From the NCBI GenBank assembly GCA_041576165.1, contig JBFGLM010000019.1, positions 18,715-82,714 on the forward strand: a stretch of DNA of 64,000 nt. The letters are read 5' to 3'. The stretch is from Acidimicrobiia bacterium. GTDB lineage: Bacteria > Actinomycetota > Acidimicrobiia > Spongiisociales > Spongiisociaceae. The first letter of the stretch is position 1. Each line of letters begins with the position of its first letter. The notes beneath the pieces are model-generated. The model saw nothing but the letters and a program-made list of their open reading frames with translations, searched no databases and had not been told where the DNA came from. The position numbers and the translations under genes were made by a program. Shown one piece after another: positions 2,225 to 8,334 of the stretch.

Positions 2225-3357
2225 CCACCAAGATCCTGCTGGTCGACGATGAGAAGAACGTCCTGGATGGTTTTCGACGCAACCTCCGAAGGTACAAGCT
2301 GACAACGGCGCTCGGACCGCGGGAAGGCCTCGAGGAGATCGAGAAGAACGGCCCATTCGCGGTGGTGGTGTCCGACCTGCAAATGCCGCACATGAACGGC
2401 ATCGAGTTTCTCTCCAAGATCGAAGCGGTGGCACCGAAGACGATCCGGATCATGCTCACGGGCCAGGCTGACGTGAACGTCTCCATCGCCGCGGTCAACG
2501 AAGGCCATGTCTTTCGCTTTTTGACCAAACCGTGCCCGCCGGAGCTGCTGGCGGCGACCCTGAACGATGCGCTGGAGCAGTACCGGCTGATCGAAGCCGA
2601 ACGAGAGTTGCTGGAGGAAACACTCCACGGCGCGGTGCAGGTGCTCACCGACGTACTTGCCCTGGTGGACGAGGGAAGTCAAACGTTTGCAGCTCAGGTG
2701 CAAGCGACCGTGACCAAGATGTGCAACGCGGTGGGACTGGAGGGATGGCAATACGAGCTGGCCGCAATGCTCTCGCAACTCGGCAACCTCACGTTGCCCG
2801 GCGAGACAACCGCCAAGCTCAATCGCGGCGCGCCGTTGACCGACCACGAGAAGGCTATGGCCGATCAGGCGCCTCAGGTCGCCTTCCGCCTGCTGGAACG
2901 CATTCCCCGGCTGGATGTAGTCGCGGCCATCGTGCGCGGTCAGGCCGAGCCTCCCCCATTCATCCCCGGTGACCCGACCGACATCGTGGCCGCGGGCGCC
3001 AACCTTCTGCATTTCGCAGTCCGCTACCACCGGCTCGTCGCGTCGGACCGGCCGGATTCCGAGGTCAGAACGGTGCTGGAGAACGCCGCCGACGACGAAT
3101 TTCGCGCTGCGTTGGTGGCCGCCCTGTTCACCACCGACGAAGCTGCGTGGGAGGAGGCGATCCTGCCCGTCCGCTCGCTGGACGTAGGTATGGTTCTCGG
3201 CCAGGCGGTTCGGGCAAACAACGGCGTGTTGCTGCTCTCAGAAGGGCAGGCCCTCAACGCAGCGTTGCTAGAGCGTTTACGGGTGTTCGCCGGCGGCGTC
3301 GGCGTGGAAGAACCACTCCGGGTCCGATACCAGACGAACCGAAGCGTCGCCGCCTGA
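2221..3357 (+). CDS. Response regulator (REC + degenerate HD-like output domain)
   Basis: ILLVDD, phosphoacceptor SDLQMP, MLTG, FLTKP; C-terminal AAMLSQLG is a degenerate HD-like segment; overlaps kinase stop. Confidence 0.88.
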   Translation: MTTKILLVDDEKNVLDGFRRNLRRYKLTTALGPREGLEEIEKNGPFAVVVSDLQMPHMNGIEFLSKIEAVAPKTIRIMLTGQADVNVSIAAVNEGHVFRFLTKPCPPELLAATLNDALEQYRLIEAERELLEETLHGAVQVLTDVLALVDEGSQTFAAQVQATVTKMCNAVGLEGWQYELAAMLSQLGNLTLPGETTAKLNRGAPLTDHEKAMADQAPQVAFRLLERIPRLDVVAAIVRGQAEPPPFIPGDPTDIVAAGANLLHFAVRYHRLVASDRPDSEVRTVLENAADDEFRAALVAALFTTDEAAWEEAILPVRSLDVGMVLGQAVRANNGVLLLSEGQALNAALLERLRVFAGGVGVEEPLRVRYQTNRSVAA

Positions 3358-3398
3358 GGTACCGGCGCCCGGCGTGGTGAGCCGACCGGTCTATTCGT

Positions 3399-3719
3399 TC
3401 ATCCGCCCGGCGGGCGATATTCGACTACCACCTCGGCGATCTCGTCGACTTCCTCCGGCGTGATCAGCACCGTTGTTGACGGGGCCACCGAACCGGACGC
3501 GGCCACGGTCATCGCCACAGCAGCCGCGGTCGTGTTGTCGGGCATGGAACCGATCACGATGACGTCGTCGTCGCCGAATGCGTAGTAGAAAGCGTCGAGG
3601 CTGCCGCCCAGGCTCTCGAACAGCTTCTCGATCGTGGCGCGTCGGGAAGTGCCCCCTTCCTTGAGAGTCCCCTTCAATCCATCGCCGGTCAGCTTGGCCC
3701 GAATCAGATACTTGGGCAT
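3399..3719 (-). CDS. GYD-domain protein
   Basis: 106 aa; ESLGGSLDAFYYAFGDDDV pattern typical of the GYD family. Confidence 0.8.
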   Translation of the reverse strand: MPKYLIRAKLTGDGLKGTLKEGGTSRRATIEKLFESLGGSLDAFYYAFGDDDVIVIGSMPDNTTAAAVAMTVAASGSVAPSTTVLITPEEVDEIAEVVVEYRPPGG

Positions 3720-3789
3720 CCGTTTCCTCCTTGATGGAACCCGACACAGTGTCGCGCCGCGACCTGCGGCACGACAAGTAGCGGTTCGC

Positions 3790-4815
3790 TCAAGGCGACC
3801 TCGGGGTGGCCAGTGTGCCTGCCTGACGGTCTGTTATGTGCCCCGCTCGGTGGAGCCAGACGACGGTGTCGAGCATCGTCGTGTCCAGCGGTGTGAATTC
3901 GATCCCGAGATCGTGCACCGCGGCTGAGGACTCGGCGACGTCGCCGTTGGCCAGCAACCAGGGAGCCTCGAACGAGATTGCCGGCTCTATGCCGAACCGG
4001 TTGCGCGCCCAATCGGCCAGACGTCCCGTCCCTATCGCCACCCCGTGCGGCACCGGGATGGACCATAGGTTGCGCCCGGCCAGCTCGCCGACGCGGGCGA
4101 TGGCGGCACGGAAGTCGATGTTGTGGCCCACAACCACATAACGGCGGGGCCCGCCACCGGGCTCGAGAACAGCGACGAGGGCGGCGGCGACGTCCCGGAC
4201 GTCGCTGATCGGGAGGTTGCCGCCGTTGAGCACCCGCATCTTGCCCTGCAGCGCGTTCTTGACCAGCTGCGCACTCTCGCCGAGGTACGGGTCGTCGGGG
4301 CCCCAGACGGACCCTGGATAGATGATGACCACCGGGTGGCCATCTGCCTGGAGCCGCCGGGCGATCAGGTCCGCCACAGCTTTGGAGTTGCTATAGGCCG
4401 GTTCGGGGGTCCCGACCTCGGAGTCGGGAGTGATCGGGCCGTCGGACGGCAGCAGGGCAACGAAACTCGACACGTGCACGATCGGGTCCAGTCCGGCCTG
4501 GACCGCCTCGCCGAGCACGAGTTCGGTGCCGTGTTGGTTGACGTGGTTCATGGTCTCGACCCGTCCAGGATCGAACGTGAAGACGTTGGCCGCATGGATA
4601 ACCGCCTCACAGCCCGTCAACGCCTTCGTCACGGCGTTACGGTCGGTGACATCCCCGACCTGGACCTCAGAGGGATTGACGCCATGGGGGCTGAGCGCGG
4701 GCTCCACCCGGTCCTCGGAACGGACGAGGAGCCGCACCGAGTGACCCTGCTTGATGAGCGCCGCCACGGTGTGGGAGCCGACAAAGCCGGTACCGCCGGT
4801 TATCAATACCTTCAT
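3790..4815 (-). CDS. NAD-dependent epimerase/dehydratase (extended SDR)
   Basis: TGGTGFVG Rossmann motif, YSNSK catalytic YxxxK. Confidence 0.88.
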   Translation of the reverse strand: MKVLITGGTGFVGSHTVAALIKQGHSVRLLVRSEDRVEPALSPHGVNPSEVQVGDVTDRNAVTKALTGCEAVIHAANVFTFDPGRVETMNHVNQHGTELVLGEAVQAGLDPIVHVSSFVALLPSDGPITPDSEVGTPEPAYSNSKAVADLIARRLQADGHPVVIIYPGSVWGPDDPYLGESAQLVKNALQGKMRVLNGGNLPISDVRDVAAALVAVLEPGGGPRRYVVVGHNIDFRAAIARVGELAGRNLWSIPVPHGVAIGTGRLADWARNRFGIEPAISFEAPWLLANGDVAESSAAVHDLGIEFTPLDTTMLDTVVWLHRAGHITDRQAGTLATPRSP

Positions 4816-4879
4816 AGGGGCCTGCCTCTCGCAAGTGTCCCAATGCTACCGGGAGCGACGCTGGGAACCCCGGGAGCAG

Positions 4880-5419
4880 CTATGAGGCCGAGCCGGACTC
4901 GGGTCCGGGCTGAAGCGTCCGCATGAACACTTGCATCCCGTAGTGAATGGCAATCAGGCCGCCCAGCTCCATGATCTGGGCCTCGGTGAAATGCTTCTTG
5001 CCCTCGTCGTAGAAGGCTGCGTCTACCTTTTTGGGATCCCGGTACATGAGGTGGGCGTAGCGCAGAGCCCATTTCTCGGCATCGGTGAAGTGAGGATCAT
5101 CCTCGAAGTCCTCGCGTCCTGCCTCGATTTGCTCTTCAGTCAGCCCGGCGGTGATCGCCGGTTGGGAACGGAGTGCCGAGAAATAGGGGTCTCGTGCAGT
5201 CCGGGCCAGCTGAATCCGGATGATCTCCTTCAACCGGTGATCGACGCCGCCTTCGAACAACGCCTCCGCCATGGCCCCGGTTATGGCTTCGGCATACCCG
5301 GGCACGTGCGCCAAGATCTTGGCAAACCTCCCGTCAGCGTCTCCCAGGCGTTCCATGAATTCAAAAGCCGGACCTAATCGCTCGGTTTCGTGCTCGTCGA
5401 GGACCTTCGGACTGGGCAT
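4880..5419 (-). CDS. AhpD/carboxymuconolactone decarboxylase-fold protein lacking CxxC
   Basis: DHRLKEIIRIQLARTARDPYF; FTDAEKWALRYA; HFTEAQIMELG; no cysteine in the translation. Confidence 0.8.
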   Translation of the reverse strand: MPSPKVLDEHETERLGPAFEFMERLGDADGRFAKILAHVPGYAEAITGAMAEALFEGGVDHRLKEIIRIQLARTARDPYFSALRSQPAITAGLTEEQIEAGREDFEDDPHFTDAEKWALRYAHLMYRDPKKVDAAFYDEGKKHFTEAQIMELGGLIAIHYGMQVFMRTLQPGPESGSAS

Positions 5420-5427
5420 GTCTTCTC

Positions 5428-6084
5428 CTAAGTCGGTGCGTCCGCCTCGGACTCAGCCAGCGCCTTCAGCACCGCTTCGCTGCGGTGCGAGCCGGGTGTG
5501 TCGCCATAGATCCGTTGCGATTCCTCTTGGCTCACCAGGCGCCCGTCGGGGGAGAACATCGGGTAGAAGTCGAGTGTCCGAAAGAACGTGTGGTAACCGA
5601 CGTTGAAGCCGATGAAGGTCCCAAGCTCCACGATCTCAGCCTCGCTGTAGTACTGACCGAGCCTGGCGTAGAAGACCGGATCGATCTTCTCCGGGGCAAA
5701 CTGCATAAGCTCGCTGTATTCGAGGGCGATCTTCTCGGCTGGCGAGAACTCGGAGCTGTTGCGCCAATTGTCGATCCCCTCGTCGATCCGCTCTTCGGTC
5801 AGTCCGTTCCGCTTCGCCGAAGCGGATCGCACGTTGCCTCAGTAGTTGCAGCTGGCGGCTCGGGAGAGTTGAACCCGGATGATCTCTTTGAGGTTGTGAT
5901 CGATCGCGCCGGTGTTGAACACCGTACCCCACGCGACATAGAGCGCCTTGGACAGTGCCGGATTGTGACCCTGGATGGCGTGGAAGGCCGGGTCAGGGGC
6001 CCGGTGCTTCAGGCACTTCTTGACGAACCCGGCAAGTTCGGACTCCATGAGTTCGTCGATGTCGAGCAAGGTGATATTTGACAC
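5428..6084 (-). CDS. AhpD/CMD-like peroxidase, predicted selenoprotein (CxxU, in-frame UGA at 5839-5841)
   Basis: GTG start at 6084 after GGAGGAG RBS; ...LKEIIRVQLSRAASCNY-TGA-GNVRSASAKRNGLTEERI... continues in the same frame to 5428 (218 aa) and is colinear with the downstream paralogue on both sides of the UGA; SECIS-like hairpin follows. Confidence 0.8.
5808..5826 (-). promoter_or_regulatory. Candidate bacterial SECIS element
   Basis: mRNA UGA-GGCAACGUGCGA-UCCGCUUC-GGC-GAAGCGGA: perfect 8-bp stem starting 12 nt after UGA, apical loop starting with G. Confidence 0.7.
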
Positions 6085-6140
6085 TGGTCTCCTCCGGGTC
6101 TTCCGAGACTCTATCTCACAGCGGTTCGAGTGGAATCGGG

Positions 6141-6590
6141 CTAGGCCTTCCAGCCGGACCCTCCGAACAGGCGAACCGCGTAATAGGCCAGTGTTCGGCG
6201 CCAGGCGGGTACACCTTCCTGTTCCATGATCCGGCGGAAGAGCTGGTCGGCCTCTTTGCGGGTATAGGTCCGGGGTGGCTCGGCTGCGCCCGGCGGTGGA
6301 CGCCCTCCATAGGCGTAGAGCCAATCGTGCATCAGGGGTGCGGTCACCGATAACTCGAACGGCGAGATGAGCCACCAGAAGGCGCGCGGCACCGAAGCCA
6401 AGTCGAACTCGAACCCGGCGGCGACGGTCAGACGAGTCGGCCCGTCCACATACAGGTAGTCCTCTTCGAGTCTCCAGACCTCGCGTTCCGGCAAGTAGGT
6501 GAGGACCGGCGCCGGCAGTCGCGATGCGGTGATGTCGACCGGTTCGTGCTGAAGTCGGTACGCGGATTCGTCCACCGCCTCCCTCCCCAT
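6141..6590 (-). CDS. DUF1353 domain protein
   Basis: AGFEFDLASVPR, MHDWLY, RKEADQLF, YYAVRLFG motifs. Confidence 0.85.
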   Translation of the reverse strand: MGREAVDESAYRLQHEPVDITASRLPAPVLTYLPEREVWRLEEDYLYVDGPTRLTVAAGFEFDLASVPRAFWWLISPFELSVTAPLMHDWLYAYGGRPPPGAAEPPRTYTRKEADQLFRRIMEQEGVPAWRRTLAYYAVRLFGGSGWKA

Positions 6591-6687
6591 GTAGCCATAC
6601 CGCCAAGCCTACGCCCACCGTCCAGGTTTGAGCCGCGGAGCGCGCCGCAGGCGCCAACCCCACCATTGGGTGGTGCACCGCCGCAGA

Positions 6688-8334
6688 TCATCGGACTTCG
6701 CAGTCCGTCACCGGCAGGCCAACCTCGAGCGCGTACGAGCGGATGGCCTCGCGGCGGCTCGATTGGATCTGGATCGCGTCGCATGTCGCCTCCAAAGCCG
6801 CTTCCGGCAACGAAACCGAGGAGTACAGCGACGCGGCCGCCAGCAGCATGGCGGCGCCGTCGAGTGGACCAACCGCATGGCCGAACTCAGTCAAGCTGTC
6901 GGCCGCGCCTACCCGCCCGCGCCGTTCCTCGACCGGCGTGTAGAAGGTGAAGAAGCTGTCGACTTGCTGCTTGGTCCAGCCGGAGACATCGGGTTGGGCT
7001 CCAAGCAGTGCCACGTATACCGGCGCATCCTGTGGCACCAGATTCGGGTCGGCCGCGATGTGCAAACTGAGGGGTGGGCGCAGGTCTCGTCCTGTGTAGC
7101 GGGGCCAGCCGGCGAACGGTGTTCGATATAGGCCGAACGGGCGTACCGAGTCGTACAGGACCACCGCACCATCCGCCGTCTCGGTGTCGAGGACGGCGGA
7201 GACCGCCCGCCAGTCGGGAAACTCCTTGGTGGAGAGCTGAGTCCAGAGCCCGCCCAGAGACCACAACGCCAGACCAGCGACAACCGCTAGGCCTGTTCCC
7301 GCCAACCACCAGCGGGACCGCCCCTCCACTGCGACATGGGTGATGGCTCCGGCCAGCGCCGCCAGCGGTGGCCACCAGGAGAAGACGTAACGGTCGAAGT
7401 ACGGCTGGCTCTCGGGGGTGCGTAGAAAGAAGAGCAGCGCGAAGCCGATCGGCACTGCCACCAGCGGCCAGAACCACCAGAGCCCGGCGACACGAGTTCG
7501 CACCGACGGCCATGCGCCGGCAGTCAACGCGACTACCAGTCCGAAGATGCCAATCTCCTGAGAGAGGACCTCTGGCAATTCGGAACCAAAACGGGAAAGG
7601 CCACCCCAGGACACGCTGGCGTCCACCGTGTACTCGGCCAGCTCTGACGACAGGCGCACAAACACGGGTATCTCGACCAGCACCAACCCGGCAACCGCGG
7701 CGGCAACGGGGAGTTTCCACCGTGTTTGGGTGACCTCATGGTTCTGGATGCGCAAAACCGCGAGCCAGGCGGCAGTGGCGGCCAGCACTATCGGGGGCTC
7801 GACGGTCCGGGACAGCGGGAGCAGGAGAGCGGCCACGACGGCAATCGCTCCGCCGAGCTTGGATCCTTCCCGGAGCCATCGGTCGGACTCCTCCAAGAAC
7901 AGCAACGTGAGAAAGAGGGGGAGCGCGTACGGGCGCGCATACGCGGTCACTGCAACCAGGCCGGGAGCGATGGCCATCAACGCAATCGCCACCGGCGCCC
8001 CGATCCCCAGCCTCGACCCGTTGAGGAGCAAACCCAGAACTATCAATGACCCGATTCCCCATAGCGCCGGCAGCAATCGTTGGTGGATGTCGCCGACACC
8101 GATCACCCGTTGGAAGGTCGCGTTGAGGAGCGGATCGAGGGGCGGCTGCTCTTGCGCAAAACTCGCATCGACGATCTCACCAAACGACCAGCTGTAGGAC
8201 CGAACCTGGCGCAGCTCGTCGATGTTGTATGGCTCCTCCAGGACCGCAATGATGAGCACCAGCGCGCCCACCACCACGCCGAGGACCGAAGCGATCAGAA
8301 CTGCGCGGGACGAGGACTGTGTCACCCGGACCAT
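6688..8334 (-). CDS. GT-C fold membrane glycosyltransferase (PMT/ArnT-like)
   Basis: N-terminal TM then DE motif (YNIDE), QPPL, ARPYAL, many TM segments and a C-terminal soluble domain. Confidence 0.7.
   Translation of the reverse strand: MVRVTQSSSRAVLIASVLGVVVGALVLIIAVLEEPYNIDELRQVRSYSWSFGEIVDASFAQEQPPLDPLLNATFQRVIGVGDIHQRLLPALWGIGSLIVLGLLLNGSRLGIGAPVAIALMAIAPGLVAVTAYARPYALPLFLTLLFLEESDRWLREGSKLGGAIAVVAALLLPLSRTVEPPIVLAATAAWLAVLRIQNHEVTQTRWKLPVAAAVAGLVLVEIPVFVRLSSELAEYTVDASVSWGGLSRFGSELPEVLSQEIGIFGLVVALTAGAWPSVRTRVAGLWWFWPLVAVPIGFALLFFLRTPESQPYFDRYVFSWWPPLAALAGAITHVAVEGRSRWWLAGTGLAVVAGLALWSLGGLWTQLSTKEFPDWRAVSAVLDTETADGAVVLYDSVRPFGLYRTPFAGWPRYTGRDLRPPLSLHIAADPNLVPQDAPVYVALLGAQPDVSGWTKQQVDSFFTFYTPVEERRGRVGAADSLTEFGHAVGPLDGAAMLLAAASLYSSVSLPEAALEATCDAIQIQSSRREAIRSYALEVGLPVTDCEVR

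Follow-up and report, generated by a model that had tools for sequence, protein, structure and literature searches.

A CxxU selenoprotein of the CMD/AhpD-like class encoded beside a Cys-less paralogue, its probable second subunit

A family of selenoproteins named 'CMD domain-containing protein', with a CxxU motif and the Pfam domain PF02627, was predicted in 2005 (Zhang, Fomenko and Gladyshev, PMC1088965). The family is tabulated as 'CMD-like protein' in a 2026 review (PMC13188914), and 'AhpD-like 2' of the GOS survey (PMC2398784) is probably the same family, as suggested by the shared Pfam number and motif. The passages of the 2005 paper that deal with the family give no full-length gene, no covariation and no Cys-less partner (PMC1088965), and a literature search that took in few subscription papers found no experimental study of these proteins. 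AhpD-like enzymes are described as working with a CxxC motif and a Glu/His relay, PA0269 being a weak peroxidase, and a His four residues after the second Cys has been called invariant in AhpD-like peroxidases (PMC3141380). The literature also discusses bacterial AhpD-like proteins of two domains, one of them lacking Cys (PMC11429811).

Here, we describe a gene, gene A, whose product belongs to the family predicted in 2005: it has PF02627 with a CxxU motif and is closely homologous to founding sequences. Two Sargasso Sea fragments in the 2005 supplement, AACY01716242 and AACY01688758, fall into the gene A subfamily and agree with gene A in the C-N-Y-U motif, the residues that follow it and the hairpin (PMC1088965); by a count made by eye, AACY01716242 is identical to gene A residues 61-149 at 61 of 89 positions, and two other founding entries belong to a different subfamily. 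An earlier note on this DNA, made from its letters without database searches, was thus right to call CxxU AhpD/CMD-like selenoproteins a known class, and the subfamily of gene A itself was already in that supplement.

The window, by which we mean the whole 64-kb stretch of Acidimicrobiia DNA analysed, carries gene A on the minus strand, left unstated in the earlier note, at 5428-6084. Its GTG start (6084-6082), with the Shine-Dalgarno sequence GGAGG 6 nt 5' of it (6091-6095), opens a frame of 219 codons that ends at TAG 5430-5428 and contains a single internal TGA (5841-5839). Translation of 6084-5428 with this TGA as U gives 218 residues with one recoded codon, U82, in the motif C79-N-Y-U82, and the read-through product matches the CMD domain PF02627 with 36.7 bits (cut-off 23) over residues 50-121, thereby spanning the TGA. 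Hence, the 218-aa product with a GTG start and a strong ribosome-binding site, as well as the TGA at the second Cys of a CxxC motif, stand as the earlier note had proposed them. It had also read the ORFs 5839-6678 and 5428-5832 as one gene split by one TGA; they do share a frame, but the start at 6678 is spurious, this ORF being over-extended at its 5' portion into a DUF1353 gene (6141-6590, minus strand, by Pfam) that lies 56 nt upstream of gene A. Scans of 3300-6800 returned no promoters and two terminator-like sites, the same as the shuffle level.

The internal TGA is conserved in every orthologous locus of two scans that spans it. A genome scan with six seed peptides, all chosen outside the motif and the hairpin, gave full-length orthologues (best 80 of 91 relatives) that are 64-84% identical to gene A and come from Acidimicrobiia, Nitrospinota, Alpha- and Betaproteobacteria, SAR324 and others, and column 82 is TGA in all 80. 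In a second, independent scan, of metagenomes and with the partner gene B described below as seed (best 80 of 448), all 66 loci covering the column have TGA. Across these 146 loci the codon is never TAA or TAG, the flanks are 62-84% identical and no other internal stop is found. The in-frame UGA is kept where homologues have Cys: in 69 database alignments of less than 50% identity, column 82 is Cys. As to the question raised in the earlier note, whether Cys or TGA occupies this column in homologues, both are found. Cys was also seen in one close orthologue, P0086, which is 69% identical to the gene A product, has Cys-Val-Phe-Cys in place of CxxU, groups with betaproteobacterial rows in the tree and apparently represents a Sec-to-Cys replacement. 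With respect to the assembly itself, one assembled contig identical to the window spans 5822-6176; past the TGA it extends for only 17 bases, and the run it comes from is possibly the sample that gave the window. Related-strain contigs from three other studies also span the TGA, and among the 40 of 108 contig rows listed (assembled contigs only) 5839-5841 is unchanged, with neither TGC nor TGT, which agrees with a genuine TGA but does not decide the matter. Because the orthologues carry the same TGA, a sequencing error appears implausible. Assemblies often break near the motif and hairpin (L041 and L023 of genome G037; pieces of run X1 ending at 5833 and starting at 5822), perhaps due to near-identity of this stretch across strains.

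The earlier note had described a perfect 8-bp hairpin 12 nt past the UGA, and this is what we find: the stem TCCGCTTC-GGC-GAAGCGGA (5826-5808, minus strand) with the loop GGC. It has the form given for bacterial SECIS elements, in which the UGA is closely followed by a stem-loop whose small apical loop contains a G (PMC1088965), and would be the SECIS upper stem-loop. Fold z-scores are -2.3 to -3.0 in three short windows but only -1.15 when the window is widened to 101 nt. A comparable hairpin, defined as a perfect stem of at least 8 bp that starts 8-16 nt past the TGA and has a G as its first or second loop base, follows 255 of the 132,003 TGA triplets of the genome (0.19%). At 82 codons, at least 76 of the 80 genome loci (best 80 of 91) encode one and the same residue; the only synonymously invariant ones among them are +6 to +9 (GCT, TCG, GCG, AAG), which make up stem and loop of the hairpin and encode residues that are also invariant. 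Stem pair 18-32 is U-A in 57, C-G in 21 and U-G in 2 of the 80 genome loci (best 80 of 91), and C-G in 48 and U-A in 18 of the 66 metagenome loci (best 80 of 448); its switch requires an Arg/Gln change at codon +10, making the locus an example of an RNA structure that constrains a coding sequence. In the hairpin alignment 96.3% of cells pair, compared to 31-62% in slid controls, and the covariation score was reached by none of 500 shuffles, the rows being related rather than independent. The covariation that the earlier note had proposed looking for is thus present in part: one pair covaries among the orthologues, but four of the eight are invariant and the outermost is weak, being unpaired in 16 of 60 distinct rows. 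The CxxU paralogue on contig C48 has a hairpin of identical geometry (12 nt, 8 bp, GGC) in which four stem pairs are exchanged, and at 23 TGA or TGC sites in more distant homologues from this genome and its relatives, a hairpin of at least 6 bp follows 11 of 11 TGA codons and 1 of 12 TGC codons (background 162/4994, 3.2%). Judged by these comparisons, the hairpin is under selection as RNA, with the paralogue hairpins arguing more strongly for this than covariation within the orthologues. Deviations occur in L138, with the loop GTC instead of GGC, and in L207, with a stem mismatch; both keep the TGA.

The genome (5.1 Mb, 96.5% complete, 7.5% contaminated) encodes the machinery for Sec insertion on contigs other than that of the window, where a tRNA scan of the 64 kb gave no genes. 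The selA, selB, selC and selD genes that the earlier note had suggested searching for are all there: two selA and two selB over the cut-off in adjacent pairs (C24:55512-58621 and C100:605-3619), two different tRNA-Sec with the anticodon TCA (C1:33376-33466 and C145:1292-1382) and one selD that bears its own in-frame TGA and hairpin. The two selA copies are 53% identical to each other, and the second selA/B/C set, which lies on small contigs with the same GC, is either bin contamination or a genuine second Sec system. Among 79 carrier genomes, with L061 excluded as the second locus of one genome, 73 have selA over the cut-off and 6 are without such a match, one of these being split across contig ends. 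Because 39 of 41 relatives of this genome, the unpublished G039 among them, have selA anyway, the co-occurrence carries little weight within this lineage.

Bacterial Sec insertion is SelB-dependent and takes place at a UGA with a downstream SECIS, and from the conservation of codon and hairpin we are almost certain that the UGA of gene A is translated as selenocysteine. Two other readings of the codon have to be weighed. If the TGA were a real stop, the locus would be a pseudogene, owing to a nonsense mutation or a sequencing error, or would encode an 81-aa and a 134-aa half, each translated on its own. Such halves are on record from gene callers, in line with the expectation of the earlier note that annotation would split the gene: C-terminal pieces are most of the 120 database matches listed, 10 database proteins end at C-x-Y, and a GTG lies 6 nt downstream of the TGA. 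Nevertheless, we regard a stop as very improbable given the same TGA, with both flanks conserved, in every locus of the two scans that covers the column, a break that would fall within the CxxC helix of a single domain and a hairpin that follows TGA, not TGC. An alternative code, in which TGA is Trp or Gly and residue 82 is not Sec, would account for the W recorded at column 82 in seven close database proteins. One of these, P0003, differs very little from L102, where the codon is TGA; the W is therefore probably an artefact of gene calling, the TGA having been read under another code. Moreover, RF2 is over the cut-off in the genome, Trp tRNAs read CCA, the tRNAs with a TCA anticodon are tRNA-Sec only, and the gene A ORF itself ends at TGA in 44 of 80 orthologues (best 80 of 91), so that TGA is an ordinary stop elsewhere; an alternative code is already refuted by these data, and we give it a negligible chance.

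Gene B (4880-5419, minus strand) encodes a 179-aa CMD paralogue, recognised by Pfam, that is 40% identical to A over 145 aa and has D-P-Y-F in place of C-N-Y-U. The gap between the gene A stop and gene B is 8 nt, and the AGGAG ribosome-binding site of gene B (5425-5429) overlaps the gene A TAG stop; many gene B copies elsewhere overlap or abut the stop codon of gene A. Gene B is directly downstream of A in 79 of 80 genome loci (best 80 of 91), the remaining contig ending after 264 more bases, and none of the 77 complete separate gene B copies has Cys at either motif position. From the B side, A is upstream in 75 of 80 metagenome loci (best 80 of 448); four others are cut by contig ends and one is a 5'-truncated B. 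The linkage is thus two-way and near-perfect across several phyla. The truncated copy (L175:1501-1911) lies without A right behind another gene, which we take, by its motif, to be peroxiredoxin-like. In ten sequences, L105 and nine database proteins, A and B are fused via a variable linker. On a quick tree (96 rows, 120 columns; not a careful search), the fusions fall in two places and need two changes, but starred branches also allow one origin and independent origins are therefore not claimed. In four betaproteobacterial loci the gap between A and B is long; stops in these spacers leave the idea that recoding or a frameshift joins the two genes there without support.

The model of the gene A product (pLDDT 83, pTM 0.80) has the all-helical AhpD/CMD fold with a two-helix CxxC motif, and its matches to solved structures (2pfx, Z 15.5; 3lvy, 14.6; 2gmy, 14.4; Bmp8, 13.8) stand well above unrelated rows. 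For the A:B complex, modelled in the A:B pairing only and on an orthologous pair, P0003 (which has W on record in place of Sec) with the partner protein of L102, ipSAE was 0.94, compared to 0.00 for the best of three controls; the ipSAE mark is reached by 116 of 157 solved pairs and 2 of 215 mismatched pairs. The complex runs agree in at least 98% of contacts, with a partner pLDDT of at least 90. The predicted interface is pseudo-symmetric: corresponding positions of the two chains take part in it, and residues 79-82 stay free of it. As AhpD-like dimers have been solved and A and B are paralogues, the complex score may reflect likeness to such dimers. The natural fusion L105 (model pTM 0.74, linker disordered) has human Sestrin2 (5cuf) as its best match over both domains (Z 21.7, rmsd 3.5, 281 aligned residues, 11% identity) and as its top Foldseek match.

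When 3,651 ORFs from 81 loci were clustered all against all, A and B were the only genes common across lineages, and no reductase or substrate gene conserved beside them across lineages was found (first 40 clusters), so that the neighbourhood offers no substrate clue. In the window, an NAD-dependent epimerase gene (3790-4815) and a GYD-domain gene (3399-3719) lie downstream on the minus strand (both by Pfam), and neither they nor the DUF1353 gene are among the recurrent neighbours of A-B in those clusters. Lineage-specific neighbours recur in Nitrospinota-type loci (L072-L126) and Alphaproteobacteria (L111-L125), with two genes upstream in 25-29 loci and one downstream in 14, which on a look at their sequences we take to be aminotransferase-like and hydrolase-like (upstream) and molybdoenzyme large-subunit-like (downstream). 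Including gene A, the genome has five CMD/AhpD-like selenoprotein genes; the other four are C-x-Y-TGA genes with a hairpin at a similar distance (C48:24391, plus; C18:12169, plus; C15:35198, minus; C93:1905, minus), and the Cys paralogues C15:10162 and C46:6683 are without a hairpin. A different two-domain CMD fusion, P0167 (376 aa), has C-x-x-W in both domains and is a candidate double selenoprotein, if both W are TGA codons.

The active site is that of an AhpD-like enzyme with two replacements. The relay residues E67, C79 and Y81 are kept in 80 of 80 orthologues (best 80 of 91), with Sec82 in place of the second Cys; four residues further on, where the relay His would stand, all 80 (best 80 of 91) have Arg86, and so peroxidase activity is not assured. 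We discarded the idea that Arg replaces His because Sec needs no relay, given that many Cys homologues carry Arg at this position too. His35 and His165 are invariant in the orthologues (best 80 of 91) and could, as far as sequence conservation goes, substitute for the relay His. All NCBIfam matches of gene A are far below their cut-offs, including TIGR00778 (19.3, cut-off 27.8), TIGR01926 (28.9, cut-off 81.8) and NF041047 (19.2, cut-off 110), and NF041238 gave no match at E up to 0.1. Thus, the product most likely works as AhpD-type redox enzymes do but falls outside AhpD in the strict sense. The view of the earlier note that gene A encodes a Sec-containing redox enzyme is supported; what it overlooked are the partner gene B and the missing relay His.

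Altogether, we consider it probable that gene A is read through via SelB and the hairpin to give an AhpD-fold oxidoreductase that, most likely as an A:B heterodimer, would act on a peroxide or a disulfide. In this model, SelB carrying Sec-tRNA would bind the hairpin 12 nt past the UGA, the UGA would be read as Sec, and the product would be an all-helical AhpD/CMD-fold selenol/thiol oxidoreductase, with gene B supplying what would be the second subunit of the usual AhpD-like homodimer. Sec82, as the selenolate, might then attack a substrate in its oxidised form, for which a hydroperoxide or a disulfide (of a protein or of low molecular weight) is the likeliest candidate; Cys79 might resolve the intermediate to give a Cys79-Sec82 selenenylsulfide; and a cellular reductant, encoded elsewhere than nearby, would recycle the selenenylsulfide, with the invariant His165 perhaps taking over the role of the relay His. 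The nucleophile is the second Cys in M. tuberculosis AhpD but the first in Sestrin2, and the order of Sec82 and Cys79 is therefore uncertain. For the substrate itself we lean, by a small margin of belief, towards a peroxide or disulfide.

That A works as a heterodimer with the co-translated Cys-less B, with one active site per dimer, is in our view likely, with linkage and fusion observed and binding modelled; it is also the part of our reading that we did not find in print: a literature search that took in few subscription papers gave no paper on such a heterodimer, and none on the gene pair as far as titles and the openings of abstracts go. If instead A were an ordinary homodimeric AhpD-like selenoenzyme, B would be independent or co-regulated, perhaps ligand-binding or chaperone-like, and no stable heterodimer would form. 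This is what the solved relatives, which are homo-oligomers (PMC3141380), would lead one to expect; the predicted interface, with its equivalent positions, would allow homodimers too, and a profile search showed no partner-like gene for the four other CxxU paralogues in the genome. Against it stand the near-perfect two-way linkage across several phyla, the overlapping or abutting stop and start codons and the fusions via variable linkers in two parts of the tree, and we consider it unlikely. A alone may not fold or work without B. An improbable alternative on the chemical side is a Bmp8-like reductive dehalogenase or other small-molecule reductase, in which the selenolate would attack a halogen or other electrophile on an aromatic substrate and B would shape the pocket. 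Selenolate attack on the halogen of an aromatic substrate is known from iodothyronine deiodinases. Among profile matches to solved structures, Bmp8 shares first place (E 8.8e-19 over 147 positions), but at ~20% identity and jointly with PA0269 and other peroxidase-related entries. It also has a Foldseek TMq of 0.62 and its Z of 13.8 covers 179 residues. The absence of the AhpD relay His would fit such an enzyme, and in the profile alignment, by counting, the invariant His165 stands opposite Asn170 of Bmp8, which has a catalytic role. On the other hand, the Bmp8 His three after the second Cys is Val85 in 80 of 80 orthologues (best 80 of 91), the C82A mutation in 6ohj concerns the first Cys, not the Sec position, and no halogenase or bmp-like cluster was seen among the recurrent neighbours (first 40 clusters; neighbours without library annotation). 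Bmp8 itself has been described as a dehalogenating CMD homologue (PMC7918430).

Going beyond the preferred peroxide or disulfide heterodimer, we tentatively speculate, with more doubt than conviction, that the A:B heterodimer is obligate, with a Sec subunit whose site contains Arg86 and His165 and a dead paralogue as the substrate-selecting or ligand-sensing subunit, and that it forms a two-gene, sometimes fused, counterpart of the sestrin plan. The cassette would have moved among Acidimicrobiia, Nitrospinota, Alpha- and Betaproteobacteria and SAR324, and the substrate of its enzyme would be one particular small molecule, perhaps a halogenated one, in place of generic peroxide. If an obligate heterodimer were true, the 'CMD' selenoprotein of 2005 would be only half of an enzyme.

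The AhpD-like peroxidase-related proteins (PA0269, 2o4d/2ijc; 2pfx, 2prr, 2gmy; M. tuberculosis AhpD) share with gene A the fold (Z 14-15.5), the helix-turn-helix CxxC site and the relay positions Glu67, Cys79 and Tyr81. In contrast to them, at ~20% identity, gene A has Sec for the second Cys, Arg86 for the relay His, an extra conserved C-terminal segment of ~45 aa and a Cys-less paralogue as pair mate. The Bmp8 debrominase (6ohi, 6ohj) has the fold and a C-x-Y-C motif in common with gene A, in which Sec takes the second position, and gives the longest profile alignment, but gene A is without the His after the motif and no bmp-like cluster was seen beside it. Among NCBIfam models, 'YciW-related (seleno)protein' NF053654 is the best match (E 5e-18), but at 65.5 bits against a cut-off of 310 gene A is not a member. 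Sestrin2 (5cuf) resembles the A-B plan in that an active AhpD-like unit is followed by a linker and a Cys-less AhpD-like unit. A and B, however, are usually separate genes, as in the window, and the pseudo-dimer with an active first and a Cys-less second domain is found in the modelled fusion L105 only. In addition, the first Cys and the His are all that remains of the site in sestrin (PMC4674687), whose second domain has a helix-loop instead of the helix-turn-helix, identity to Sestrin2 is 11%, and no sestrin Pfam match was found at E up to 1, where only PF02627 is listed; we therefore treat the likeness, which rests on the model, as an analogy of architecture and not as demonstrated descent. 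Finally, the 'CMD' entries of 2005 are fragments of less than 90 aa (PMC1088965), whereas gene A is full-length. It provides an annotation fix for a family that databases hold as split halves or with a probably false Trp, and the A:B pair is a concrete lead on the function of a family predicted in 2005.
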